Shown here: positions 9,989-51,280 of the stretch, in pieces
How the letters are laid out: each line of letters opens with the position of its first letter
Position numbering within the stretch: position 1 is the stretch's first letter
Assembly: GCA_019459085.1 (NCBI GenBank)
Contig: JAIBEW010000034.1
Coordinates: forward strand, 18,767 to 82,766
DNA: 64,000 nucleotides
Direction: 5' to 3'
Source of the DNA: Kaistella sp.
Lineage (GTDB): Bacteria > Bacteroidota > Bacteroidia > Flavobacteriales > Weeksellaceae
Notes under the pieces: model-generated
Database searches by the model: none
The model's input: the letters and a program-made list of their open reading frames with translations, nothing else
Told to the model about the DNA's origin: nothing
Translations under genes and position numbers: made by a program

Positions 9989-10177
9989 GGAAGGAAGCAG
10001 TGAGTAGGAATTAGGAGACGGGAAGTAGGATTTAGGAAGTAGGAAGGTGGGCGAGCGAAGCGAGCGCCAGTGTTTTCAAGAAATTATCAATAGGAGCGGG
10101 CTTTAGTCCGTTTATTGAAAATGAATAGAGATCGGCTTTAGCCAAAACTTATTAGAGAATTTAGAATACCCAAACAA

Positions 10178-10245
10178 AAAGTTCCGCAGGAACTTTATCT
10201 GTGTAGCAGAATGGAAAGGGGTGATGAAGCGTTCCGTAGGAACGC
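10178..10245. repeat. pair of related GTTCC-GNA-GGAAC hairpins (REP-like)
   Basis: The first is aaagttcc gca ggaacttt (10178-10196). The second is gcgttcc gta ggaacgc (10229-10245). They lie 50 nt apart in the nrdB-nrdA spacer. Confidence 0.6.
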
Positions 10246-10274
10246 CATCTGAAAAAATCAATAGACCGTAAATC

Positions 10275-10712: not shown

Positions 10713-12368
10713 ATGGAAGAACAATCGAAAATCTGGTGGCTGAACGAAGAGTCCGAACAAATGCTGAACCGCGGCTATTTACTGAAAGGGGAAACCGTTG
10801 ACGGCGCGATCCTCAGAATTACGTCTGCAGCCGCAAAAAGATTATACAAACCTGAGCTGCAGCCTGCTTTCGAGGAAATGATCAGGAAAGGCTGGATCAG
10901 CTTTTCGTCTCCCGTTTGGGCCAATATGGGAACCGAACGCGGTTTGCCGATTTCGTGCTTCAACGTGCATGTTCCCGATAATATCGAAGGAATCACGCAT
11001 AAACTCGGCGAAGTGATTATGCAGACCAAAATCGGTGGCGGAACTTCCGGATATTTCGGAGAGCTCAGAAACCGCGGAACTGCCGTAACGGATAACGGAA
11101 AATCTTCCGGCGCAGTGTCGTTTATGAAGCTTTACGATACCGCGATGGATGTGGTTTCGCAGGGCGGCGTCCGTCGCGGTGCTTTTGCCGCTTATCTGGA
11201 CATTGACCACGGTGATATTGAAGAATTTTTATCGATCAAGGATATTGGAAGTCCGATTCAGAACCTCTTTACCGGAATCTGTGTTCCGGATTACTGGATG
11301 CAGGACATGATTGATGGCGATATGGACAAGCGTAAAATCTGGGCACGCGTGCTGGAAAGCCGTCAGCAGAAAGGTTTGCCTTACATTTTCTTTACCGATA
11401 ATGTGAACCGGAACAAACCGCAGGTCTACAAAGACCACGGAATGATGGTGAATGCGAGTAACCTGTGTTCGGAAATCATGCTTCCTTCAAGTGCTGAGGA
11501 ATCTTTTATCTGCTGTCTTTCGTCGATGAATCTTGAGCTGTACGACGAATGGAAAGACACGAACGCCGTGAAACTGGCGATTTATTTTCTAGATGCTGTT
11601 TTATCTGAATTCATCGAGAAAACCGAAGGAAATTACTATTTAACCGGAGCCAGAAACTTTGCCCTTCGTCACCGTGCGCTTGGTTTGGGCGTTTTGGGCT
11701 ATCATTCCTATCTGCAGAAAAATATGATTCCGTTTGAAAGTTTTGAGGCAACACAGTTCAACGCGAGAGCGTTCAGACAGATTAAAGAACAGTCGTTGCA
11801 GGCATCACAGGAACTCGCCAATATTTACGGTGAGCCGGAACTATTGAAAGGCTACGGAATGCGGAACACGACCACAATGGCGATTGCTCCAACCACTTCC
11901 AGTTCAGCCATTTTGGGTCAGACTTCCCCGGGAATTGAGCCTTTTGCCTCGAATTATTACAAAGCCGGTCTGGCGAAGGGGAATTTCATGCGCAAGAACA
12001 AATACCTCGCGAAACTTTTGGAAGAAAAAGGACTCGACAATGAAGAAACGTGGAGAACCATTATGCTGAATCACGGTTCTGTGCAGCAGCTGAAGGAACT
12101 GACGGATGAAGAGAAAGCAGTTTTCAAAACCTTCAGGGAAATATCGCCAATGGAAATTATTTCGCAGGCCGCGCAAAGACAGCAGTACATCGATCAGGCA
12201 CAGTCATTGAATTTACAGATCCCGTCGACAATGCCGGTAAAAGATGTGAACTACCTCTACATCGAAGCTTGGAAAAAAGGAGTGAAAACGTTGTATTACC
12301 AAAGAAGTTCATCGGTTTCCAAAGAAATGATGGTGAATTTTGTAAGTTGTAGTTCTTGTGAAGCGTAA
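10713..12368 (+). CDS. nrdA: ribonucleotide reductase alpha subunit, short form without ATP-cone
   Basis: 551 aa. Motifs include SCFNVHVPDNIEGI, NLCSEIMLP and AIAPTTSSS, with a C-terminal CSSCEA redox tail. There is no N-terminal ATP-cone. Confidence 0.9.
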   Translation: MEEQSKIWWLNEESEQMLNRGYLLKGETVDGAILRITSAAAKRLYKPELQPAFEEMIRKGWISFSSPVWANMGTERGLPISCFNVHVPDNIEGITHKLGEVIMQTKIGGGTSGYFGELRNRGTAVTDNGKSSGAVSFMKLYDTAMDVVSQGGVRRGAFAAYLDIDHGDIEEFLSIKDIGSPIQNLFTGICVPDYWMQDMIDGDMDKRKIWARVLESRQQKGLPYIFFTDNVNRNKPQVYKDHGMMVNASNLCSEIMLPSSAEESFICCLSSMNLELYDEWKDTNAVKLAIYFLDAVLSEFIEKTEGNYYLTGARNFALRHRALGLGVLGYHSYLQKNMIPFESFEATQFNARAFRQIKEQSLQASQELANIYGEPELLKGYGMRNTTTMAIAPTTSSSAILGQTSPGIEPFASNYYKAGLAKGNFMRKNKYLAKLLEEKGLDNEETWRTIMLNHGSVQQLKELTDEEKAVFKTFREISPMEIISQAAQRQQYIDQAQSLNLQIPSTMPVKDVNYLYIEAWKKGVKTLYYQRSSSVSKEMMVNFVSCSSCEA

Positions 12369-12403
12369 TTGAGAACAAAGAACAAAGAATAAAGAATAAA
12401 GAG

Positions 12404-12690
12404 GAGCCAGGGCAAAAGTGTTCCGTAAAATGTAAAAGTAAAATGTACAGAAAGTTTCGTGGCTGCAGATAGTGCTGATTTTGGGATTTGTGCAATTTGT
12501 GTAAATATTGGTGTCCTTTGTTTGCGAGGAGGAGGTGGTCCCTGAGCGAAGTCGAAGGGAACGACAACGAAGCAATCCCCTCTCGGACTCCGATGCTTTA
12601 TTCAGACCGCAATTTTTTTGTGCAATTGGTGTAAATATTGGTGTCCTTTTGTGTTTAAGAAGGTATGAGTAAAGAACAAAGAGACAAGAC
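12404..12690 (+). repeat. composite intergenic element, copy I (modules A-B-D-C-D-A')
   Basis: Collinear with 17199-17527 and 18214-18488. Order: gagccagggcaaaag words, gtaaaatgtaaaag words, the tgtgtaaatattggtgtcctttgt module, the 90-nt C module, then aaagaacaaagaga words. Confidence 0.8.
12522..12612 (+). repeat. C module copy 1 (ttgcgaggaggaggtggtccctgagcgaagtcgaagggaac...gaagcaatccc...ttcagaccgc)
   Basis: About 94% identical by eye to 18297-18387. Flanked by 34-nt direct repeats at 12488-12520 and 12617-12650. Confidence 0.8.
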
Positions 12691-12693
12691 ATG

Positions 12694-12719
12694 ACCGCAG
12701 ATTTTTCTGCGGTTTTTTT
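12694..12719 (+). terminator. Rho-independent terminator (probable nrdA terminator)
   Basis: The stem accgcag (12694-12700) pairs with ctgcggt (12707-12713). Loop is attttt and a T7 run follows. Confidence 0.65.
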
Positions 12720-12920
12720 GTGTTTTTCCCCGTGTTCTGTGTAAATTCTCCGTGCCCTCTGTGGTTAAGAAGAGCAAGAGATGGTAAGCCATACGCAGGA
12801 GTTGATAACTAGCGTCCCAGCCTAAAGCATATAAGCCTAAAGCCAAAATGTCTGTGGTTTTTTATACCTTTTCTGTGTGCTCAGTGTGAATTCTTTTGTG
12901 TTCTCTGTGGTTAAAAGGTT

Positions 12921-13093
12921 AAAGAATCAAGAGCCAGGGCAAAGGTATCATGTAAAAGTACAGTAGGTTTTGTTGCTGCATATAGTGCTGGTTTAGATTT
13001 TGTGCAATTTGTGTAAATATTGGTGTCCTTTGTGGTTACAATAACAGGATTAAAGAGCAAAGAATAAAGAGTAAAGAACAAAGAGACAAGACA
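12921..13093 (+). repeat. composite intergenic element, copy IV (A-B-D-A', no C module)
   Basis: Collinear with 12404-12520 plus 12660-12690. It has a single D module (12998-13036) and no C insertion. Confidence 0.75.
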
Positions 13094-13097
13094 ATTA

Positions 13098-13121
13098 CCG
13101 CGGAATTTCTGCGGGTTTTTT
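13098..13121 (+). terminator. Rho-independent terminator (paralogous to 12694-12719)
   Basis: Stem ccgcgg/ctgcgg with one G.U pair, loop aattt, then a T6 run. The same aaagaacaaagagacaagaca lead-in precedes it as at 12670. Confidence 0.55.
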
Positions 13122-13123
13122 AT

Positions 13124-13131
13124 TATATTTG
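13124..13131 (+). promoter_or_regulatory. Bacteroidota -7 box (TAtaTTTG)
   Basis: Matches TAnnTTTG and ends 5 nt before the ATG at 13137. This would give a leaderless or near-leaderless mRNA. Confidence 0.3.
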
Positions 13132-13136
13132 AAGTG

Positions 13137-13739
13137 ATGAGAAACAAGGTTTTTATTTTTTCAATGTTCCTGGTTTTTACAGGAGTCTCCGCACAGAAAA
13201 AACAGATTTATGTGAATGACCAATTTGCAGAAATTCCTAAAGCTGAATTTATGCAGGGCAATAATGAAATATTCTACAATATTAATTTTGAGAAAGAAGA
13301 TACGGTGTACAACGTACGCGTTCAAAGGAAAACACAGGGGATGTTATCCGCTGAAGAAATGGCTGCGTTAAAAAGTAACCTCAACCATTCTTTGGAACGT
13401 CGTTTAGTCATCAGTTATTATCCCGGATTAGACGCATGCAACAAAAGTTCAGATAATAATCCTTATGTTATTTCAGACTTAAAATCGTACCCCAAAAAGT
13501 TCAAACAAGCAGGAGTTGATTTTCTGCTTCTTTACATCAACAGTGAAGGCCTGAAAAATAGGATGAAGAAGTTTGACTGGAAAGAAGATAAAGATCAATT
13601 TGTTCATAATATGTTCCTGAAAATTCATTATCCATGTGATTCATCCATTGTGCTTTTCCCAGACGGGCGCTTCGTCACTTTTAAGGGGGAACACAGTTGG
13701 GGAGACGTCTTTGATACCGCAGTATCTAAAAATAAATAA
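13137..13739 (+). CDS. hypothetical secreted protein
   Basis: About 200 aa with an N-terminal signal peptide (MRNKVFIFSMFLVFTGVSAQ). The ATG at 13137 is preferred over the GTG at 13134. No family recognised. Confidence 0.55.
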   Translation: MRNKVFIFSMFLVFTGVSAQKKQIYVNDQFAEIPKAEFMQGNNEIFYNINFEKEDTVYNVRVQRKTQGMLSAEEMAALKSNLNHSLERRLVISYYPGLDACNKSSDNNPYVISDLKSYPKKFKQAGVDFLLLYINSEGLKNRMKKFDWKEDKDQFVHNMFLKIHYPCDSSIVLFPDGRFVTFKGEHSWGDVFDTAVSKNK

Positions 13740-13754
13740 ACAAATCAGTACATT

Positions 13755-14639
13755 ATGAAATTCGGACAAGTAGAAGACCCTTCGCAAATTGATTTTACCC
13801 TTCCTGATGACCATCCCAAAACTGGGACAATCCTGAAGAAATCCAAAGCCAGAGACCTGGAAATCCGTATCGGCTGTGCGAAATGGAACAAAACCGACCT
13901 CAAAGGATTTTATCCGAAAGGCACGAAGGACGAACTGACCTATTACGCGACGCAGTTCAATTCCATTGAGCTGAATGCTACTTTTTACGGGATGCCTTCG
14001 CCTGACCAAGTCTTGACGTGGAAGGAAAAAACTCCGGACGATTTCAGGTTTTTCCCGAAGATTACCAACACGGTTTCGCATTTCCGCAGGCTGCTGAATA
14101 TTACCGATGTCGTGACCCAGTTTGCCACTTCGGTTCTGAATTTTGATGAAAAACTGGGGATGGTTTTCCTGCAGCTTCACGACAATTTCAAACCCAAAGA
14201 TTACGAAAGACTCGAAAAGTTTATCGAAGACTGGCCGGAAGAAGTCCCTTTGGGGGTAGAACTCCGGAACAGTGAGTGGTTTTCAGACGAGGAAGTGTTC
14301 AATACCACGATGGCACTTTTTGAAAAACACCGCATCACCAATATTATTGTCGACACCGCCGGAAGAAGGGATATGCTTCACATGAGACTCACGACACCGG
14401 TGGCGTTTGTGCGGTACGTAGGCGCCAATGCAGAAAGCGATTACACCAGACTCGACGACTGGCTCACGAGAATTGCAGAATGGAAAGCAGCAGGTCTTGA
14501 AAAACTGTATTTCTTTGTGCACCAGAATATAGAGAAAGCATCACCTTTGCTTTCGGCGTATTTTATTGAAAAAGTAAATAAAGAATTCGGAGTGGAGATT
14601 CATGTTCCGCAGATGGCGGAGCCGAAAACGTTGTTTTGA
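13755..14639 (+). CDS. DUF72 (YecE/UPF0759) family protein
   Basis: 294 aa. Characteristic motifs: IRIGCAKWNK...FYP, YYATQFNSIELNATFY, TPDDFRFFPKI. Confidence 0.8.
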   Translation: MKFGQVEDPSQIDFTLPDDHPKTGTILKKSKARDLEIRIGCAKWNKTDLKGFYPKGTKDELTYYATQFNSIELNATFYGMPSPDQVLTWKEKTPDDFRFFPKITNTVSHFRRLLNITDVVTQFATSVLNFDEKLGMVFLQLHDNFKPKDYERLEKFIEDWPEEVPLGVELRNSEWFSDEEVFNTTMALFEKHRITNIIVDTAGRRDMLHMRLTTPVAFVRYVGANAESDYTRLDDWLTRIAEWKAAGLEKLYFFVHQNIEKASPLLSAYFIEKVNKEFGVEIHVPQMAEPKTLF

Positions 14640-14784
14640 TAGAATCAAGAATCAAGAGCCAAGGCAAAAGTAAAATGTATAATTGTAGAATGCAAAATGT
14701 ACACGGGGTTTGTGCGACAGATTAAGCCGGGATACGGTGTTGTGCTTTTGGTGCAGAAATTTGTGTTCTTTGTGTTTAGGAAGG
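14640..14784 (+). repeat. composite intergenic element, partial copy (A-B-D)
   Basis: Heptads aatcaag aatcaag agccaag gcaaaag taaaatg tataatt gtagaat gcaaaat start at 14643, just after the stop. A D-like module (gtgcagaaatttgtgttctttgtgtttagg) follows. Confidence 0.7.
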
Positions 14785-15134
14785 CGGAAAGCTGGGAGAT
14801 GGAAGCCAGATGTGAGATCCTGCTGATTTAGAAAGATGAAGACTATGGTTAAGGTTAAGGAAACCATGCCTTTAGCAGGCTTTTAATATGCTTAAAGTAG
14901 GGATTAGGTATGGCTCAACCCCGGGAATGTTCTTTCTGTAAAGGGTTGAAAGGGTATTGATGAGGTAAAAATCGCTACAGAAAATAAATGTAAAATGAAC
15001 AAAGTATTCATGTTAAATGTACTGAATACGAGTACCACCAATACTAAAAAAGTCAAAGCCGCCAACTTTATGGCCAACGACTCTACCGCTTAACAACTAA
15101 CGACTGAACAACTTAACGGTTTCTATACTGCTAA

Positions 15135-15431
15135 TTACGCCAAAAACTCAATCTGTTTGTCTTTAAAGTCATTTTTCTCCACAAGTTTGTTCATGGTTTT
15201 CAGCATTTTTCTGCGGAGTTTTGCGATTTTCCGGATGTTTTTGTCGGGGCTGTAATCGAAGATGCTGTCTTCAAAGGAGAACGTGTCGCCTTCTGCAAAA
15301 CTGATGTCGTTTTTCTTTAGTTCTTTCAGAAGCATCAGATTGGTCATGGTTTCGAGCAGTTCATGTTCCAAAAAAGCCAGACTTTGTAGGGATTTCAGGA
15401 CCTCTTTCTTATATTTCTTTTTGTTTTTCAT
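15135..15431 (-). CDS. hypothetical protein (98 aa)
   Basis: Start taken at the internal ATG (MKNKKKYKK...). The 74 codons upstream in the track ORF run through low-complexity repeat words. Confidence 0.45.
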   Translation of the reverse strand: MKNKKKYKKEVLKSLQSLAFLEHELLETMTNLMLLKELKKNDISFAEGDTFSFEDSIFDYSPDKNIRKIAKLRRKMLKTMNKLVEKNDFKDKQIEFLA

Positions 15432-15472
15432 TTCTTGAATAATTGAGTCGGTAAAGATATTCAAAATTATTG

Positions 15473-15703
15473 GAAGATTGAAGAGCCATGGCAAAAGTAA
15501 AAAGAGCCAAGGCAAAAGGCAAAAGTAAACTGTACAATGTAAAAAGTAAAAAGTAAAATGTAAAAGGGGTTTAAGAGGGGAACTCTTGCAGGAGGAGGAT
15601 CTTGTGTCATTAGTGAAATAATTGGTGTGATTTGTGGTTAGCGGTAAGAGCAAAGAGCAAAGAAAAAAGTGAAAAGTACCAAATACGAAGTGCGAATTAC
15701 GAA
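15473..15703 (+). repeat. composite intergenic element, partial copy (A-B, C-remnant, D, A')
   Basis: Heptad blocks: gaagatt gaagagc catggca aaagtaa aaagagc caaggca aaaggca aaagtaa ... aatgtaa (15473-15563) and gagcaaa gagcaaa gaaaaaa gtgaaaa gtaccaa atacgaa gtgcgaa ttacgaa (15648-15703). The stretch cttgcaggaggaggatcttg occupies the C position. Confidence 0.7.
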
Positions 15704-15817
15704 AAATAGAGAAGTAGAACTAAAAAGCCAAAAGCACAAGACCAGAAAAACAAAACAACAAAATGCCCCTCAAAACAAAAAACAACATCGCCATTCTTCA
15801 CCAATGAATTTTTTACT

Positions 15818-15825
15818 TAAATTTG
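15818..15825 (+). promoter_or_regulatory. Bacteroidota -7 box (TAaaTTTG) upstream of glyA
   Basis: Matches TAnnTTTG about 105 nt upstream of the glyA ATG. No clear -33 element was seen. Confidence 0.25.
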
Positions 15826-15880
15826 AAACTCCAAATCTGATGGGGGATTTCTACAGTTTGACATCACATATTTGGCACCA

Positions 15881-15930
15881 ACATCAGACATCCAACACGA
15901 AACATCCAACACCTAACACCCAACATTTAA
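15881..15930 (+). repeat. CA-rich G-poor heptad leader abutting the glyA start
   Basis: Reads acatcag acatcca acacgaa acatcca acaccta acaccca acattta, then a-ATG. Confidence 0.75.
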
Positions 15931-17199
15931 ATGCAGGACCCGATTTTTGACCTTATTGAAAAGGAAAGACAGAGACAGACCCACGGAATTGAACTCATCG
16001 CTTCAGAGAATTTCGTTTCCGATAATGTGATGAAAGCCATGGGCAGCGTCCTCACGAATAAATATGCAGAAGGTTATCCGGGCAAAAGATATTACGGCGG
16101 CTGCGAAGTTGTGGACGAAGTTGAAAACCTCGCCATTGCTCGCGCTAAAGAGCTTTTCGGCGTGAATTATGTGAATGTACAGCCGCACTCCGGTTCCCAG
16201 GCCAACGCGGCCATTTATCTGGCCTGTCTGAAACCTGGCGATGCCATTCTTGGCTTGGATCTGTCGATGGGCGGCCACCTGACTCACGGAAGTTTCGTGA
16301 ATTTTTCAGGAATTCAGTACCAGGCAAATTTTTACGGTGTTGACCGTGAAAGTGGCCTTATCGACTATGATGCGATGCGCCAGAAAGCCCTCGAAGTAAA
16401 ACCGAAAATGATTATTGCAGGGTTTTCCGCCTATTCCAGGGATCTTGACTATCAAAAATACCGAGAAGTGGCTGATGAAGTGGGGGCTACTTTATGGGCC
16501 GATATCGCGCATCCGGCCGGTTTAATTGCCAAAGGGCTGCTTAATAATCCTTTTGAACACTGCCATGTTGTAACCACCACCACGCACAAAACCCTGCGCG
16601 GACCACGTGGCGGCATGATCATGATGGGCAAGGATTTTGAAAATCCATTTGGACATAAAACCCCTAAAGGCGAAACGAAAATGATGAGCGCGGTGCTCGA
16701 CAGTGCTGTCTTCCCGGGAATTCAGGGCGGTCCGCTAGAGCATGTGATCGGAGCGAAAGCCGTGGCGTTTGCGGAAGCCATCGATGAAAAGTTTGAAATC
16801 TACACAAAACAGGTCATTGCGAATGCTCAGGCACTTTCGAAGGCAATGGTGGACTGCGGTTTCAACATCGTGAGCGGCGGCACCGATAACCACCTGATGC
16901 TCATCGATCTGAGAAATAAAAATGTAAACGGCAAGGAAACCGAGAAAGCCCTTGTAAAAGCCGATATCACCTGTAACAAAAATATGGTGCCGTTCGACGA
17001 CAAGTCGGCCTTCACCACTTCAGGAATCCGTCTCGGAACGGCAGCCATCACCACGCGGGGTATGAAGGAAAATGACATGGAAATCATCGCCGGTCTCATC
17101 AATGATGTCGTGATGAACCTTAAAGACGACACCGTTATTTACGGAGTCCGCAAAAAAGTGAATGAACTCATGGATTCGCGGCCATTGTTTCAGTATTAG
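15931..17199 (+). CDS. glyA: serine hydroxymethyltransferase
   Basis: 422 aa. Canonical motifs: [39 protein letters not shown] (PLP lysine). Confidence 0.95.
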
Positions 17200-17527
17200 A
17201 GGCAAGAGGCAAGAGCCAAGGAAAAAGGCAAAAGTAGAAAGGATCTGTACAATGTAAAAAGTACAATGTAAAGCTGCTCCTGCGCAAAATTCAACATCGT
17301 CTTTGCGAGGAGGAGGTGGTCCCTGAGCGAAGTCGAAGGGAACGACGACGAAGCAATCCCATCTCGGAATCTGATGATTTATTCAGATTGCTGTTAATTT
17401 GTGTCCCTTGTGTAAATATTTGTGTTCTTTGTGGTTAATAGAGCAGTTGGGAATAAAGAATAAAGAGGAAAGAACAAAGAGAAAAGGCAAAAGAGCCAAG
17501 TAAAAAGTAAAAGGTAAAGAGGCTTCG
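17199..17527 (+). repeat. composite intergenic element, copy II (A-B-C-D-A'), 47 heptads in one phase
   Basis: See the findings. It starts inside the glyA TAG stop codon. Confidence 0.8.
17303..17392 (+). repeat. C module copy 2
   Basis: About 92% identical by eye to 18297-18387. Confidence 0.8.
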
Positions 17528-17643
17528 TTATAGACGTCGGGAGTTGCAGAAAGCAGCTTATCTACAAGCAATTAGATTCAGTCAATAATTTTGGCTGATT
17601 TTTTTTTAATTTTTAAAGAATCGCTGCTTTCCGGGATTCCGTT

Positions 17644-17651
17644 TAATTTTG
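17644..17651 (+). promoter_or_regulatory. Bacteroidota -7 box (TAatTTTG) abutting the heptamer array
   Basis: Matches TAnnTTTG and ends 1 nt before the CATCTAA array. A second match lies at 17586-17593. No clear -33 element was seen. Confidence 0.3.
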
Positions 17652-17713
17652 CATCTAACATCTAACATCTAACATCTAACATCTAACATCTAACATCTAA
17701 CATCTAACATCTA
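17652..17713 (+). repeat. perfect tandem heptamer (CATCTAA) x 8.9
   Basis: Eight perfect copies span 17652-17707, followed by the partial copy catcta. There is no G in the 62 nt. It ends 1 nt before the GTG start of recX. Confidence 0.95.
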
Positions 17714-17714
17714 C

Positions 17715-18191
17715 GTGGAACACAAATCCTACACTTTCCTTGAGATCAAACAGAAAATGGTGAACTACTGTGTTTATCAGGACCGCTGCCATCAGGAAGT
17801 GGAGCAGAAGATGCGGGATTATCTCGTTATTCCCGAAGCGAAAGAGGAAATCCTGCTCTATCTGATGAAGGAAAATTTCCTGAACGAAGAACGATTCACA
17901 CGCAGCTACATCCGTGGCAAATTCTACATGAAATCATGGGGAAGGAACAAAATCAAAAACCATCTCAAATTCAAAGGCATTTCTGAAAAGCTTATCAACC
18001 GGTGTTTCGATGAAATCGATGAGCAGGATTATGAGAACATCCTCAAAAAGATCTATGAAAACCATTATTCAAAGCAGAAAGGCCTGAAGGAATATCAGAA
18101 AAAATCCAAAACCATTACGTACCTGATTGGTAGGGGGTTTGAGTATGAGGAGATCAGGCGGGTGATGGAAGGTGATGAGGAGGGAATGTGA
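17715..18191 (+). CDS. recX: recombination regulator RecX
   Basis: 158 aa. The motif YCVYQDRCHQEVEQKM and the three-repeat helical layout are typical of RecX. GTG start; no ATG lies upstream in frame. Confidence 0.8.
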   Translation: MEHKSYTFLEIKQKMVNYCVYQDRCHQEVEQKMRDYLVIPEAKEEILLYLMKENFLNEERFTRSYIRGKFYMKSWGRNKIKNHLKFKGISEKLINRCFDEIDEQDYENILKKIYENHYSKQKGLKEYQKKSKTITYLIGRGFEYEEIRRVMEGDEEGM

Positions 18192-18213
18192 TCATGAGTT
18201 AATGAGTGGCGTT

Positions 18214-18488
18214 AGAGCCAAGGAAAAAGAAAAAGGATCATGTAAAATGTAAAAGTACAATGTAAAGGTGCTTCTGCGTAAAATTTGGCAGCGTCTTTGC
18301 GAGGAGGAGGTGGTCCCTGAGCGAAGTCGAAGGGAACTTCGACGAAGCAATCCCATCTCGGACTCGGATGCTTTATTCAGACCGCAATTTTTTGATGCAA
18401 TTGGTGTAAATATTCGTGTTCTTTGTGTTTAAGAGAGCAGTTGGGAATAAAGAGAAAAGAACAAAGAGAAAAGAAAGAAAAGCAAAAA
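18214..18488 (+). repeat. composite intergenic element, copy III (A-B-C-D-A')
   Basis: Collinear with 17213-17500 over its whole length. Confidence 0.8.
18297..18387 (+). repeat. C module copy 3
   Basis: ttgcgaggaggaggtggtccctgagcgaagtcgaagggaacttcgacgaagcaatcccatctcggactcggatgctttattcagaccgc. Confidence 0.8.
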
Positions 18489-18530
18489 GGGGTGTTTAAG
18501 GTAGGCTTTTTGGTGATGGTTTTTTTTACA

Positions 18531-18554
18531 CCGGTGCGATGCGCCGGTTTTTTT
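18531..18554 (+). terminator. Rho-independent terminator after recX and its composite element
   Basis: The stem ccggtgc pairs with gcgccgg (one G.U pair). Loop is gat and a T7 run follows. Confidence 0.55.
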
Positions 18555-18908
18555 GTGGCAAAAACGCTGTAGAATAGCTGTTCACATTCGGGTAATAAAG
18601 GGCTTTAAAATATGATGTTAACTTAACATAATTATTTTCTTTACACTTGATTTTTTGTATAATTTTGCTTCTGGAATTCAGCATGATTTTTGCTGGTAAA
18701 GCACAGAGGGTTAATTCATTAGGAAGATACCCCTTTATAGAATTTTCATAATTTCCCGCGTTCTGCTGTGTTTCAGTGTACCGGAAATTGATGGAGGTTT
18801 CAGTGCTTTAACGATAGCACCGGCTAATGATTTTGAATGGTTTTGAGGGAAGCGCTGAGAGGTCTCCATGCGCACCCTTAATAAGAATTGATACAAAAAA
18901 ACAAACAT

Positions 18909-21900: not shown

Positions 21901-22682
21901 GATATATTCCGGTTGCGCAGGGCTTCTTCGTGGAGCGTGGTACTGCAGCCACTCCTATTGTGTTTACCAATGCGATGCGACAGACTACCGAAACTGGGAT
22001 ATTCAGTAAAGCCCCCGCAACGGATAAGTTCTGGCTTCAGCTGAATACAACGACCGGTGCCGCCCCTCAGATGCTTTTCGCCTTCAACAGCGCGGCGACT
22101 GCCGGTATCGATGCCGGATATGATGCCAAAATGCTCGACAGCAATACCGAATCGCTGTATACGAAAGTCGGCACCGAAAAACTCATCATTGATTCACACG
22201 GTGCTTTCCAGAATACCGACCACTTCGATGTTTTCCTGAATACCAACACTGTGCGGAACTATACCGTTTCGCTGCTGCACGGCGACGGGATCTTTGCGGG
22301 TTCTCAGGCCATTTACCTCCGCGATAAAGTCACCGGCACGTTCACGAACCTGAGTACGGGAAGCTACAGCTTCACATCGACAGGTACAGGCGAGGAAAAC
22401 CGTTTTGAAATCCTTTTCCAGCCCCAGTCGATACTGGGTACTGCGGAAACCGTAAAAGATGAGGTCATCATCTATTCTGCCGGAACCAACGTTCATGTAA
22501 AGTCAGCGGAGAAAATAAGCCGTATAGAACTCTATGACCTGAGCGGAAGGCTTTTAGCGGCATCCAAAGGAAATGCCCGTACCGAAATGACCATTGCAGT
22601 CAACTATACAGGACCTGTTTTGGTGCAGGCAGTACTGATGAACGGTAATGTAGTGAGGAAGAAGGTGATGGTGGGTGAATAA
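18909..22682 (+). CDS. large T9SS-sorted cell-surface protein with Ig-like repeats
   Basis: The ATG at 18909 yields a signal peptide (MKTKQFSFLKQALALVMAFCSVFMWGQ). An Ig-like segment is present (PAGLSLNTTTGLISGTPTAAG), along with a Big-like segment (NPAVASVSGNTLTVGNTGTATVTA). The C-terminal ~80 aa (ISRIELYDLSGRLL...VVRKKVMV) resemble a type A T9SS sorting domain. Confidence 0.8.
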   Translation: MKTKQFSFLKQALALVMAFCSVFMWGQTVWTYDFGTGTGTFTSSTASTSFLPAPQSNGGTARVRVGTNPGSIILANPGLALGSGSEMQFKTNSGSTSTTKFSIYDYTASKAGYFKANVTLNGGTTGVYNLMIGDGANFSDNNAIANAQVFAGLRLTFGASNSISTAVLSNATWVTTGLTNASTLFAQSDTNIYAIEIYYNNTTTPTSYERSGSNSLTNATWDLWVNGTKVGTGLAKGAFGTNLNVDSFALNHQISVAAGTQGTVYLDDLEYSNGLPAVATPTISSMPTSLNGFTYVQGAGPSTEQSFSVTGSNLSASIDVSASANWEVSLAAASGYANAVQLPATGGTVYTRLSAGLTENPTYTGSITLASTGATDVTVNLSGSVTAPPVTPVVTGASLNGTVGTVFSYQIQATGTPDSYAVSTGTLPAGLSLNTTTGLISGTPTAAGNVSVDVTATNGAGTSVPATLDFTIAQGTQTAALPDLTPSVGASAITLPAATNAGLTITYISDNPAVASVSGNTLTVGNTGTATVTASNAGNADYTAFNDTFTVTVTNPPVSILEFDFAGIAGDEVSFGSSTNATGLEASVITRGAGLTASTNADRFNAINWATTSIANAVSGNDYMEFTVTPGLGYQFSVSAITFQIQRSGTGLSAVALRSSADNYAADLDGQKTVTDNTGTQAFTFNFIQADSTGPVIYRLYGYSEAAGGSAGIGDFTGSDLTITGNVTVDPAKTVWAGSPGAWTNGTPVAGLQAIIAADYAGTSFESQSLTVNTGFTLTVNTFVKTGDVENNGNITVANNANFVQTGNFTAGTGSAFKVWRDTKPAKRLAYIGWSSPLESAAQTLKAFSYGRLADGVTPQSATGTVDNRFLTYNNEVFVSTPATGTFTPAGKGFQIRTPNDFTTTPQVFHGLFEGSKPNSGTVNYDHSGITGDFVLLGNPYPSAISVQEFLNANPGTTETVYFWNSEAEMDVNGQYTGTNYNTYAPGTGAVPLNSVNGYIPVAQGFFVERGTAATPIVFTNAMRQTTETGIFSKAPATDKFWLQLNTTTGAAPQMLFAFNSAATAGIDAGYDAKMLDSNTESLYTKVGTEKLIIDSHGAFQNTDHFDVFLNTNTVRNYTVSLLHGDGIFAGSQAIYLRDKVTGTFTNLSTGSYSFTSTGTGEENRFEILFQPQSILGTAETVKDEVIIYSAGTNVHVKSAEKISRIELYDLSGRLLAASKGNARTEMTIAVNYTGPVLVQAVLMNGNVVRKKVMVGE

Positions 22683-22758
22683 GAGCCAGGAACCAAGAAT
22701 CAAGAGCCAAGGAAAAAGTAAAATGAGCCTGATAAAAAGGCGAAAGGGAAGGATGAAG

Positions 22759-22953: not shown

Positions 22954-23010
22954 GCATGAGTTAGGAGGCTGGAACAGGATTTTAGAAGCGATAGTTGAAA
23001 GATTTTCAGA

Positions 23011-23137
23011 TTAAAAATTAATAATCCAAAATCCAAAATTAAAAATCCATTTCCTAACATCTAACCTCAAACCTCTAATCCCCAACACCCAGCATCCAGC
23101 ATCCAAACATTATCTAACAACAAAAACAAACAACATC
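23011..23137 (+). other. G-depleted CA/T-rich heptad leader abutting the start codon
   Basis: Only 2 G in 127 nt (at 23092 and 23099). Heptads include tccaaaa tccaaaa ttaaaaa tccattt cctaaca tctaacc tcaaacc tctaatc cccaaca cccagca tccagca tccaaac. Confidence 0.85.
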
Positions 23138-23398: not shown

Positions 23399-23480
23399 GA
23401 GGTGGGAATTACGAAGTACGAATGACGAAGTGGGAATGAGAAGCGCTGGAAGCTGGATGCTTGAGACTGAATACTGACCG

Positions 23481-24108
23481 CTGACCGCCGAACGCGAAAT
23501 GTTCCCAATCCAACTTCAGCACCGTCATTGCGAGGCGGAGATGGTCCCTGAGCGAAGTCGAAGGGAACGACAACGAAGCAATCCCGTCTTAAACCCCATT
23601 TATGCCCCTCGTGTCCCCCTTTGTGCCCTTTGTGGTTAAGAGAAGACAGAAATAAGAGCAAAGATCCCAAAAACGGGGTCCGGAATGAGGAAATGTAATA
23701 ATAAGTTAATATGGTCCCGCAAAATGGAGGTGGAAGCCAAACGCTGAATGCCGGGTCCGGAGCTTTCTTCGAATCCCATTTGTGTCCCTGGTGCCTCCCT
23801 TTGTGCCCTTTGTGGTTGGAAAGCAGGATGCTGGAAGCCGAAAGCTAAACGCTGACCGCCAACCGCCAAATGTTCCCAATCCCTCTTCACCACCGTCATC
23901 GCCAGGCGGAGGAAGGACAACGAAGCAATCCCGTCTTGAACTCCATTTATGTCCCTGGTGCCTCCCTTTGTGACTTTGTGGTTAAGGGAAAACAGAATAA
24001 AGAAAAAAGAGCAAAGATCCCAAAAACGGGGTCCGGAATGAGGAAATATAATAATTAGTTAATATGATCCTCGAAAAATGGAGGTGGATGCTGAACGCTG
24101 ACCGCCGA
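23481..24108 (+). repeat. tandem duplication of a ~260-275-nt unit, period 371 nt
   Basis: Unit 1 is 23481-23755 and unit 2 is 23852-24108. Both run ctgaccgcc...aaatgttcccaatcc...C-like core...gcaatcccgtctt...tttgtg(c/a)c(c)tttgtggttaag...aagatcccaaaaacggggtccggaatgaggaaat...ggaggtgga. A third D-like fragment lies at 23771-23817. Confidence 0.8.
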
Positions 24109-24234
24109 AAGCTAACCGCCTAAACAACTACACAACTCAACCTCTTAACAACTCAGCCTTCCACGACTGAACGACTCAACAACTGAACGACACCACGACT
24201 CAACAACTCACCACCCCCACAAAATTTCTTTCCA

Positions 24235-50500: not shown

Positions 50501-50556
50501 AAGAATCAAGAATCAAGAATCAAGAATCAAGAGCCGAGAGTCAAGAATCAAGAACG
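50501..50556 (+). repeat. tandem heptamer AAGAATC (4 perfect and 4 degenerate copies)
   Basis: Reads aagaatc x4 (50501-50528), then aagagcc gagagtc aagaatc aagaacg. It begins 8 nt after the DUF421 stop. Confidence 0.9.
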
Positions 50557-50570
50557 GTCAACTGAAGGCT

Positions 50571-50691
50571 AAGGTTAGGGAGGGATGCGCTGTGCTGGAT
50601 GCAGGAGGAGCAAAGAGCAAAGAGTCAGTACTAGGTCAAGGTTTAGGAGGGATGCGCAGTGCTGGATGCATAAGGAGCAAAGAACCAAGAC
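50571..50691 (+). repeat. 54-nt direct repeat, period 67
   Basis: 50571-50624 (aaggttagggagggatgcgctgtgctggatgcaggaggagcaaagagcaaagag) matches 50638-50691 (aaggtttaggagggatgcgcagtgctggatgcataaggagcaaagaaccaagac). Confidence 0.8.
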
Positions 50692-50833
50692 TTTGCTGGC
50701 TTATCTTCACCTTACCACCTTACCACATCGCTTTTGCCTAGCTTCCCACACGCCACATTACCACATTAGCAAATTATCTCATTACCCCATTTCCAACTTC
50801 GTAATTCGCATTTCGTCCTTCGTCCTTCGAACT

Positions 50834-51280
50834 TCATTTCACCGTCCCGTTTTGCTTTTCCAGTTCGGCCCTGAAGATCCTTTTTCTAAGGTCGCTCGAC
50901 GAAAACCGATGCGATCTTTTATTGTAAAAAATGGCAATTCCATTTTCTTCGCAGTACTGTTTACCGGTGAAATTCTTATCGCGGTAATCTTCCCCGATAA
51001 TGCGGATATCGATGATAAAAGATTTCAGGATGTCCTCGAGGTCTTCTTCAGCGTAGTAGCGAACGATTTCGTCCACTGCTGCCACAGCCTTCAGCTGAAT
51101 GTACCGCTCAATAATGGTCTGCGTCGGTTTGTTTTTATCCGGCCGGTCGTGCGACGGATCAATCTGCAGACCCACAATCAGATAATCACAGACGGTCTTG
51201 GCTTCTTCCAGCATTTTAATGTGTCCAGCGTGAAGCAGATCGAAGGATGAAAAAGTAATTCCGACAGTTTCTTTTTTCAT
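50834..51280 (-). CDS. cytidylyltransferase-family protein (TagD-like glycerol-3-phosphate cytidylyltransferase)
   Basis: 148 aa from the internal ATG (MKKETVGITFSSFDLLHAGH...). It has the HxGH motif FDLLHAGH and a C-terminal RSHRFSSSDLR resembling the RTxGISTT motif. Confidence 0.7.
   Translation of the reverse strand: MKKETVGITFSSFDLLHAGHIKMLEEAKTVCDYLIVGLQIDPSHDRPDKNKPTQTIIERYIQLKAVAAVDEIVRYYAEEDLEDILKSFIIDIRIIGEDYRDKNFTGKQYCEENGIAIFYNKRSHRFSSSDLRKRIFRAELEKQNGTVK

Follow-up and report, generated by a model that had tools for sequence, protein, structure and literature searches.

A probable BIME-like mosaic of three repeat classes in the intergenic DNA of a Kaistella genome, and a candidate link between one of these classes and GxxExxY genes

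A 64,000-nucleotide (nt) stretch of the genome of Kaistella sp. (Bacteroidota; Weeksellaceae; GenBank assembly GCA_019459085.1, contig JAIBEW010000034.1, positions 18,767 to 82,766; hereinafter the window) carries a repeated composite element in the intergenic DNA around nrdA, glyA and recX. An earlier note, made from the letters alone, had described it as the modules A-B-C-D-A' and offered three readings: an RNA element borne by 3' untranslated regions (UTRs), a source of small RNAs (sRNAs), or a lineage-specific mosaic akin to repetitive extragenic palindromic (REP) sequences and bacterial interspersed mosaic elements (BIMEs). Of these only the last fits the evidence presented here. The element is probably a BIME-like intergenic mosaic in which three unrelated repeat classes were assembled and then copied as a block, and whose parts would be tolerated as selfish or neutral repeats and transcribed passively within 3' UTRs. 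The three classes are tandem heptamer arrays (A, B and A'), a tagged hairpin (C), and an arm built of GTG boxes (D); C and D each belong to families found in other genomes, where some members lie beside genes of predicted nucleases.

The repeats are present where they had been reported and far exceed chance expectation. A repeat finder delineated a 229-nt family (at 12476, 17257 and 18251), a D family of eight copies and the A/A' families, and a MAFFT alignment of eight sequences bore out the order of modules as A-B-(C)-D-A', except that copy I instead reads A-B-X-D-C-D-A', with D flanking C on both sides. The 26-mer at the core of C (GGTCCCTGAGCGAAGTCGAAGGGAAC) occurs four times and a 24-mer of D six times, all on the + strand, with zero occurrences expected for either. 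The earlier count of six copies, all on the + strand, was right as to the strand but too low: there are eight mosaics, 12 D modules and five C modules (Table 1). Copies Ib, IV and V, described earlier as lacking C or keeping a remnant, do lack it, and neither IV nor V keeps a convincing remnant. The setting is likewise of the REP/BIME type, with five C hairpins and 12 D modules within 12 kb of intergenic DNA, in recurring order with the other modules; alternating-orientation REP pairs are absent from the window, where every unit has the + orientation and the repeat search gave no relevant inverted repeats.

Pfam searches identified the genes next to the copies as those for the large chain of ribonucleotide reductase (nrdA), a DUF72 protein and RecX, and separate searches identified serine hydroxymethyltransferase (SHMT; glyA), in agreement with the names first given to them. 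The copies do begin close to + strand stop codons: 2 nt after that of nrdA if the heptamers are counted (36 nt to the GAGCCAGGG word), 1 nt after that of the DUF72 gene, overlapping that of glyA, and 23 nt after that of recX. Copies I, Ib, II and III are each followed by a terminator-like hairpin, and the copies lying between stop codon and terminator are very probably transcribed because of this location. Placement in a 3' UTR holds for these copies but not for copy V, which sits in the divergent region upstream of glyA, outside any 3' UTR. The repeat finder detected no terminal inverted repeats, and the open reading frames (ORFs) through the copies match no Pfam family, in keeping with the lack of coding capacity already suspected.

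In modules A, B and A' 7-nt units follow one another in tandem, in the manner of the short tandemly repeated repetitive (STRR) sequences of cyanobacteria. Their lag-7 autocorrelation is 0.53-0.62 (0.59 in the A/B part of copy I) against about 0.25 in coding DNA, and Tandem Repeats Finder reports period-7 arrays throughout them and in the majority of the window's other long intergenic gaps. A and B form a single phase-continuous tract whose units drift through AAGAGCC, AAGGCAA, AAGTAAA and AATGTAA/AATGTAC; relatives carry other heptamers at these sites. The arrays have a consistent polarity on the sense strand, being purine-rich just past stop codons and G-free and C/A-rich just before start codons. 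Heptamer repeats are known from Cyanobacteria, Beggiatoaceae and Bacteroidetes, with 'larger assemblages of heptamer repeats' in Elizabethkingia; strains differ by indels in 7-nt steps, and a proposal cited in the same study holds that slippage favours 7-nt units (MacGregor, 2015; PMC4679880). The window's arrays share with these STRR and TAACTGA-type repeats their tandem 7-nt build, their strictly intergenic location, the mixing of units, the 7-nt indels between relatives and the frequent abutting of starts. They differ in their polarity, in that the fixed word order AAGAGCC-AAGGCAA-AAGTAAA-ATGTA acts as a dispersed repeat in the window, and in that they frame hairpin and D modules. One array of nine perfect CATCTAA units abuts the GTG start of recX. 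In a relative's contig (L125, 7270-7760) a 23S_rRNA_IVP gene, coding for a four-helix bundle, lies between mutually reverse-complementary heptamer arrays (GGATGTT... / ...AACATCC); this heptamer family also flanks a hairpin element in 'Moduliflexus' (L041) and appears in the window as CATCCAA/CATCTAA.

Module C shows no periodicity by autocorrelation. In copies II, III, VI and VII it opens with CGTC (at 17298, 18292, 23523 and 23893), followed by wTTGCGAGG ... CGAAGCAAT-CCC, in outline wTTGC...GCAAT-CCC; copy I has TGTC, out of register. A second hairpin, CCCTGAGCGAAGTCGAAGGG (CCCT-GAGCGAAGTCGA-AGGG), which is broadly of the class to which C itself is assigned, is nested in the loop of four of the C copies, and since copy VII presents the plain form without it, this inner hairpin is a separable unit. 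We read C, from its sequence, as a CGTC-tagged hairpin in the broad dRS3/NTS/SRM class. It has in common with the Neisseria NTS repeat (CGTCATTCCCGCGMAVGCGGGAATCYRG) an unpaired CGTC tag, a stem starting with AT (more generally A/T-T) and an AATCC tail. NTS corresponds to the CGTC-tagged REPs, a class that was detected in Bacteroidetes as well and for which no transposase was found (Di Nocera et al., 2013; PMC3733652). SsnA, a 94-residue GIY-YIG nuclease of single-stranded DNA (ssDNA), cuts beside NTS, and 'Ssn-related motifs' (SRMs) flank the genes of its homologues across many phyla (Chenal et al., 2025; PMC11893778). Unlike NTS and SRMs, C has a far longer loop with a nested hairpin and a stem of 4-5 rather than 8-9 bp, and the degenerate motif published for the class does not match it. 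A further candidate feature of C, the 3' hairpin of copy II (AATCTGA...TCAGATT), was set aside on reading the sequences, as copies I and III do not keep it.

A scan for the exact 23-mer of the inner hairpin, with one genome per species, recovered it at no fewer than 120 sites in Acidobacteriota, Cyanobacteria, 'Moduliflexus', Bacteroidota, Proteobacteria, Gemmatimonadota, Spirochaetes and a bacterium of the candidate phyla radiation. At these sites the loop GAGCGAAGTCGA, which may point either way, is enclosed by a stem of variable sequence, often within larger palindromes. Among the 120 loci listed, the hairpin is weakly co-oriented with the upstream gene (50 versus 31, by crude gene calls), which fits a DNA-level repeat better than an RNA signal. 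In seven of these 120 a single-domain GIY-YIG gene of about 95 codons (PF01541) lies within about 650 nt of the searched hairpin, and six of the seven have a GAGCGAAGTCGAA-loop hairpin 10-26 nt upstream of the ATG; further hairpins lie inside the 3' end of the ORF in at least three loci (three or four), giving protein tails like ...GFDSAQP...RSLSEVEGN. This bracketing, by inner-type hairpins in other genomes, of GIY-YIG genes that may belong either to the Ssn clade (cd10448) or to UPF0213 recalls the SRM-ssnA-SRM arrangement; judged by eye, the hairpins flanking them do not fit the published SRM motif. We found no mechanistic tie between heptamers and the inner hairpin: period 7 is the dominant short period near the hairpin, with 8-fold enrichment, but other periods are also enriched 4-6-fold, so the effect is mostly that of intergenic DNA in general. 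The relative L125 (5330-5500 and 8620-8760) has hairpins of canonical TGTC-tagged form (TGTCATTCCGAACGAAGTGAGGAATCTCC), paired in inversion on either side of a GC-rich palindrome and similar to the Acidobacteriota type found beside the pan-bacterial hairpin.

Module D is made of four YTTTGTG (GTG) boxes spaced 9, 12 and 9 nt apart and has GTGGTTAA (GGTTAA) at its outer end; its autocorrelation peaks at lag 9. Scanning metagenomes with the pattern GTG-N6-GTG-N9-GTGYYCTYYGTGGTTAA, which the window's D copies fit, we listed at least 120 loci against about one expected by chance (with collection size and pattern specificity estimated); the 125 distinct matches yield the consensus CTTTGTGtcCTTTGTGaAAacCTTTGTGTCCTTTGTGGTTAAA with 0.72 bit per unspecified position. 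Among the listed loci, 91 of 187 arms stand in inverted pairs, either with the outer ends facing (GGTTAA..TTAACC) or in the manner of terminal inverted repeats, and the solo arms have a mild sense bias (27 co-oriented with both neighbouring genes versus 13 antisense to both). Clustering of the ORFs within 1.5 kb of the arms returned one recurrent family, GxxExxY (TIGR04256 / PF13366 PDDEXK_3), in nine of the 120 listed loci; it is always directly beside an arm, and in most of the nine the gene lies between inverted arms (TTAACCACAAAG...gene...CTTTGTGGTTAA). The converse also held: for three GxxExxY genes picked by protein similarity alone, from an Aequorivita metagenome-assembled genome (MAG), a Flavobacteriia bacterium and a sediment MAG, a reverse arm stands just before the ATG in all three and a forward arm just after the stop in two. 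The family is very large, with at least 8000 scored candidates, all at E<=1e-10, and we recovered no relatives in viral contigs. The literature searched calls it 'unknown', and we found there no link to any repeat; a literature search by sequence strings gave nothing relevant.

Judged by these matches, D is one arm, here unpaired, of an inverted repeat that is widespread and in other Bacteroidota encloses GxxExxY genes, and the association looks like an undescribed nuclease-repeat partnership. The parallel is with REPIN-RAYT systems (RAYT, REP-associated tyrosine transposase), where short repeats likewise form inverted doublets and flank a small gene of a nuclease superfamily, with many gene-less copies. 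The D system differs in that the gene is a PD-(D/E)XK GxxExxY gene and not an HUH tyrosine transposase, that the arms are four direct YTTTGTG boxes rather than a simple palindrome, and that the window holds only solo arms in one orientation: all 12 are solo and on the + strand, none being paired in inversion or enclosing a GxxExxY gene. D-like units occur in both orientations relative to neighbouring genes in strain 3519-10 and MAG bin4, and D-like modules stand upstream of glyA and of a wza-type export gene in the window and in 3519-10 alike. All three repeat classes come together near D in one of 111 metagenome loci.

Two readings of D were tried and dropped: a degenerate heptamer array (the periodicity is 9, not 7) and a diverged hairpin formed by D and A' (these fold no better than shuffles). 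A scan for sigma-70 promoters gave no excess over shuffles and, by eye, D is off the -33/-7 spacing of Bacteroidota promoters. Separately, D arms form head-to-tail tandem arrays of three to four copies in some metagenome loci, with periods of 21 nt (L164), 54 nt (L222) and 59-60 nt (L230). The locus with all three classes is a termite-gut contig (L140, 250-420), in which heptamers, a GAAC-TTCGACTACGCTCA-GTTC hairpin and a D arm lie side by side.

Comparison with relatives indicates how variable these sites are. The window's SHMT reaches at most 90% identity with its counterparts in Chryseobacterium suipulveris, 'Flavobacteriaceae bacterium 3519-10', C. koreense and several MAGs, which points to an unsampled species of the Chryseobacterium/Kaistella group; an exact match to the protein came from a single 2.9-kb Logan contig only. 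We compared the glyA neighbourhoods of seven relatives. The orthologous sites are hypervariable, the glyA-recX spacer ranging from 62 to 1508 nt (Table 1). The long spacers are filled with heptamer arrays of quite different sequence, such as the TTACTCA and CACCCAT units of L125. After the glyA stop, strain 3519-10 has AGAGCCAAG/AGTAAAA words and a similar terminator-like hairpin, without C-D-A'. Its 1.5-kb spacer is explained by repeats of the 5' end of recX and intergenic blocks: ahead of the intact gene this 5' end is present about four times (L124, 11440-12800), interleaved with two near-identical blocks of about 350 nt and one variant. A covariance model of C trained on four copies, a check that had been proposed for the element, recovered these four and copy VII, all on the + strand, but nothing in the relatives' loci searched; outside the window it matched, in truncated form, only a contig (L001) that encodes the window's exact glyA protein and probably belongs to the same organism. 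The supposed restriction to this lineage thus holds for the composite block, found only in this genome among the sequences examined, but not for its parts, as the C and D families span many phyla or metagenomes.

Under the reading as a BIME-like mosaic, the heptamer arrays would expand, contract and drift by replication slippage, and pieces would build up between stop codon and terminator, where insertions would spare the coding sequence, the terminator and the next promoter. An assembled block would then reach nearby gaps, most likely by recombination or gene conversion between similar end arrays, and be transcribed passively as 3' UTR. The similarities among copies are mostly those of neighbours: copies II and III, after adjacent genes, are 83% identical over 298 nt, I and III 87% over 180 nt, and VI and VII, 370 nt apart, 75%; the three D copies at 23.6-24.0 kb are mutual best matches, as are those at 12.4-13.0 kb. 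Similarity fades within the heptamer arrays and has no sharp ends. Because of this neighbour similarity, the fading inside arrays, and the lack of terminal inverted repeats and target duplications, copying by recombination or gene conversion is favoured over transposition as a unit. A cognate nuclease may act in this genome at present, and tolerance rather than function would account for the retention of the copies.

The position and orientation of the copies invite a functional explanation, in the first place at the level of RNA: the block or its C-D core might be a cis-acting stabiliser or processing site, or a source of 3'-derived sRNA, with its orientation under selection in the transcript. 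We consider this unlikely. It would suit the four copies (I, Ib, II and III) that have a stop codon on one side and a terminator-like hairpin on the other, the orientation of all copies with the genes, the A-type words after stops in two species, minus-strand genes included, the heptamer polarity that tracks the sense strand, and the mild sense bias of the metagenomic solo D arms. In Rfam 15, however, nothing in the window reaches the gathering threshold, and at E<=10 region 12300-18700 returns only chance-level hits. Neither C, nor D plus A', nor a whole copy folds more stably than its dinucleotide shuffles (z from -1.1 to +1.0). Folding the copies for compensatory changes, another check proposed with the earlier note, gave none: not one of the 17 pairs in the consensus fold of four C copies is compensatory, and the fold has an unfavourable covariation term (+0.56), a result of little power with four near-identical copies. 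Besides, copy V lies in a divergent promoter region, D is antisense after a + strand gene in the closest relative (L126) and takes either orientation in 3519-10, relatives lack the block in their orthologous 3' UTRs, and the families of C and D are DNA repeats associated with nuclease genes. By the structure tests and the absence at orthologous sites, the RNA element is the weaker reading.

Alternatively, the copies could function as DNA, the C hairpins and the GTG boxes of D serving as protein-binding or cleavage sites that flank nrdA, glyA, recX and the capsule locus, much as NTS and SsnA modulate transformation and recombination in Neisseria; this we hold to be just as improbable. The resemblance of C to NTS and SRMs, which are directional ssDNA cleavage sites clustering around genes, is in line with such an array, as are the D boxes, whose 9/12/9-nt spacing is about one helical turn, and the D-like modules shared by the window and 3519-10 upstream of glyA and the wza-type gene. 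Yet no cognate nuclease gene is present in the window or in 141 kb of relatives, the SRM motif is unmatched, copy number and position differ wholly between close relatives, and the similarity of nearest neighbours points to local duplication, not selected placement. Lastly, a single non-autonomous mobile element of about 270-330 nt transposing as a unit, in the manner of a miniature inverted-repeat transposable element, would explain why several loci carry collinear copies (with 83-87% identity among II, III and I over 174-298 nt) but is largely refuted already and very improbable, as the block has neither terminal inverted repeats nor target-site duplications, its modules are separable (D and A-B each also stand alone, the inner hairpin of C may be missing, and C of copy I has a D to either side), and its homology fades inside heptamer arrays.

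Returning to the tolerated mosaic as the preferred reading, several observations weigh against it. It leaves unexplained the strict sense orientation, the stop-proximal siting and the conserved order of A words, to which we attach a minority probability of function at the RNA or DNA level. All 12 D and all five C modules are co-oriented with the window's genes, and five mosaics start within 36 nt of a co-oriented stop codon; because the + strand carries almost all of the window's genes and GC skew is positive throughout, orientation by itself cannot separate transcription, replication and common descent. The order AAGAGCC-AAGGCAA-AAGTAAA-ATGTA recurs after several stops here and in strain 3519-10, where it is found also on the minus strand after the minus-strand yicC gene, and the polarity of the heptamers follows the sense strand for minus-strand genes of relatives too. 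Word order and polarity together exceed the order expected of pure debris and leave room for an RNA-level constraint or function, and the structure tests have low power because the copies (four, near-identical) are few and similar. As to the parentage of C, the predicted hairpins are weak, and the published SRM motif (HGTCWYN(0-2)YYVSBRHN(0-5)WNVSBRGN(0-2)RNCYNB) has no match on either strand of the window, the mean in shuffles being 0.36. The GIY-YIG proteins beside inner-type hairpins match Pfam GIY-YIG, their closest solved structures in PDB being UPF0213 proteins. Finally, neither a GIY-YIG gene, in the 205 kb made up of the window and 141 kb of relatives, nor a GxxExxY gene, in the same sequences, was found.

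A bolder joint proposal would make GxxExxY and its arms a third system of a small nuclease with a cognate repeat, beside RAYT-REP and Ssn-SRM, in which GxxExxY inverted repeats seed gene-less doublets and solo arms across Bacteroidota, and would add that in this lineage arms, Ssn-type hairpins and heptamers have fused into a block whose sense orientation and stop proximity reflect a real constraint or function in the 3' UTR. Taken as a whole, this is a tentative proposal that we rate somewhat below even.

Among known elements, the mosaic is most readily compared with the BIMEs of Enterobacteria, made of REP sequences, and with the Neisseria mosaics in which dRS3/NTS repeats are interleaved with others. 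Like these it is extragenic and multi-copy, with several short repeats in recurring order, sited between stop codon and terminator or between the genes of operons, and with hairpin units elsewhere tied to a small nuclease or transposase gene. It is unlike them in having no alternating REP pairs, all units pointing one way, in consisting mostly of heptamer microsatellite, and in its weak hairpins. It further differs from BIMEs in that no RAYT (IS200/IS605-type) gene turned up in the window, where no search aimed at one was made. Beyond the mosaics proper, the nrdB stop is followed by a miniature of the theme (Table 1), past whose hairpin two further palindromes, GTTCCGCAGGAAC and GCGTTCCGTAGGAACGC, are found at 10170-10250.

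Table 1. Mosaic copies, related features and comparison loci. Positions refer to the window unless a locus (L number) is named; D is a GTG-box arm, C a tagged hairpin, and A, B and A' are heptamer arrays.
Feature	Position	Strand	Details
Miniature of theme	9992..10066	+	after nrdB stop; AGGAAGT heptamers (lag-7 0.55), then simple hairpin GGCG-AGCGAAGCGAG-CGCC at 10040-10066, GAGCGAAG-loop class
Mosaic copy I	12369..12692	+	after nrdA stop at 12368; A/B heptamers 12369-12450; X 12451-12485; D 12486-12527; C 12528-12611 (inner hairpin 12537-12562); second D 12616-12660; A' 12661-12692
Terminator-like hairpin and T-run closing copy I	12693..12720	+	hairpin 12693-12714
Solo D	12728..12770	+	CCGTG/CTGTG variant, end GTGGTTAAG
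Solo D	12873..12916	+	repeat family (D4)
Mosaic copy Ib	12917..13094	+	A-B-X-D-A', without C; D 12998-13041; terminator-like hairpin 13098-13114
Mosaic copy IV	14640..14784	+	A-B then D, without C; directly 3' of DUF72 stop; D 14738-14781
Mosaic copy V	15473..15703	+	long phase-continuous heptamer tract (lag-7 0.53), D 15600-15643, A'
Mosaic copy II	17199..17527	+	after glyA stop; A/B 17199-17275; C 17298-17391 (CGTC tag 17298-17301, inner hairpin 17318-17343); D 17397-17440; A' 17441-17527; terminator-like hairpin 17578-17598
Mosaic copy III	18214..18488	+	after recX stop; A/B 18214-18268; C 18292-18386 (inner hairpin 18312-18337); D 18391-18434; A' 18434-18488; terminator-like hairpin 18530-18548
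A-B-only copy (AGAGCCAGGAACCAAGAATCAAGAGCCAAGGAAAAAGTAAAATG)	22682..22730	+	directly after stop of 1264-aa He_PIG gene; more heptamer arrays to 23135
Mosaic copy VI	23440..23680	+	outside first-reported range; heptamers, C 23523-23590 (CGTC tag 23523-23526, inner hairpin 23543-23568), D 23598-23641, A'-like tail
Solo D	23778..23818	+
Mosaic copy VII	23810..24030	+	C without inner hairpin 23887-23935 (CGTCATCGCCAGGCGGAGGAAGGACAACGAAGCAATCCCG, 23893-23932), D 23944-23987, A'-like tail; covariance model E=7.5e-4
Heptamer arrays showing polarity	17652-17713, 15878-15926, 23010-23130, 24093-24210, 50501-50835; L125 11400-11560
GIY-YIG loci near inner-type hairpins	L025, L047, L055, L083, L095, L097, L103		six by sequence pattern, L047 by eye
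GxxExxY loci by D arms	L134, L139, L182, L189, L201, L206, L223, L231, L235		metagenome; L251-L254 also GxxExxY by arms (L251, Aequorivita)
glyA-recX spacer, C. suipulveris	L123		62 nt (gene-coordinate difference)
glyA-recX spacer	L127		110 nt
glyA-recX spacer, MAG bin4	L126		137 nt; shares window gene order just upstream of glyA ('Chryseobacterium sp. bin4', GCA_018260475.1)
glyA-recX spacer	L125		337 nt
glyA-recX spacer	L129		408 nt
glyA-recX spacer, window			515 nt
glyA-recX spacer, strain 3519-10	L124		1508 nt

These results forestall an annotation of the block as a lineage-specific RNA element. Bacteroidota are not known to use Shine-Dalgarno pairing in translation, and the way in which heptamer polarity follows the sense strand suggests that the untranslated regions of bacteria of this kind are under constraints of composition. 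The GAGCGAAGTCGAA-loop hairpins beside single-domain GIY-YIG genes appear to be a set that escapes the published SRM motif. The D arms offer a testable lead on what GxxExxY proteins may do, namely recognise or cut YTTTGTG...GGTTAA arms. More broadly, the intergenic regions of Weeksellaceae appear to be built from repeat classes shared across phyla, and such assembly would explain the extreme variation in intergenic length, and the assembly breaks, seen there.

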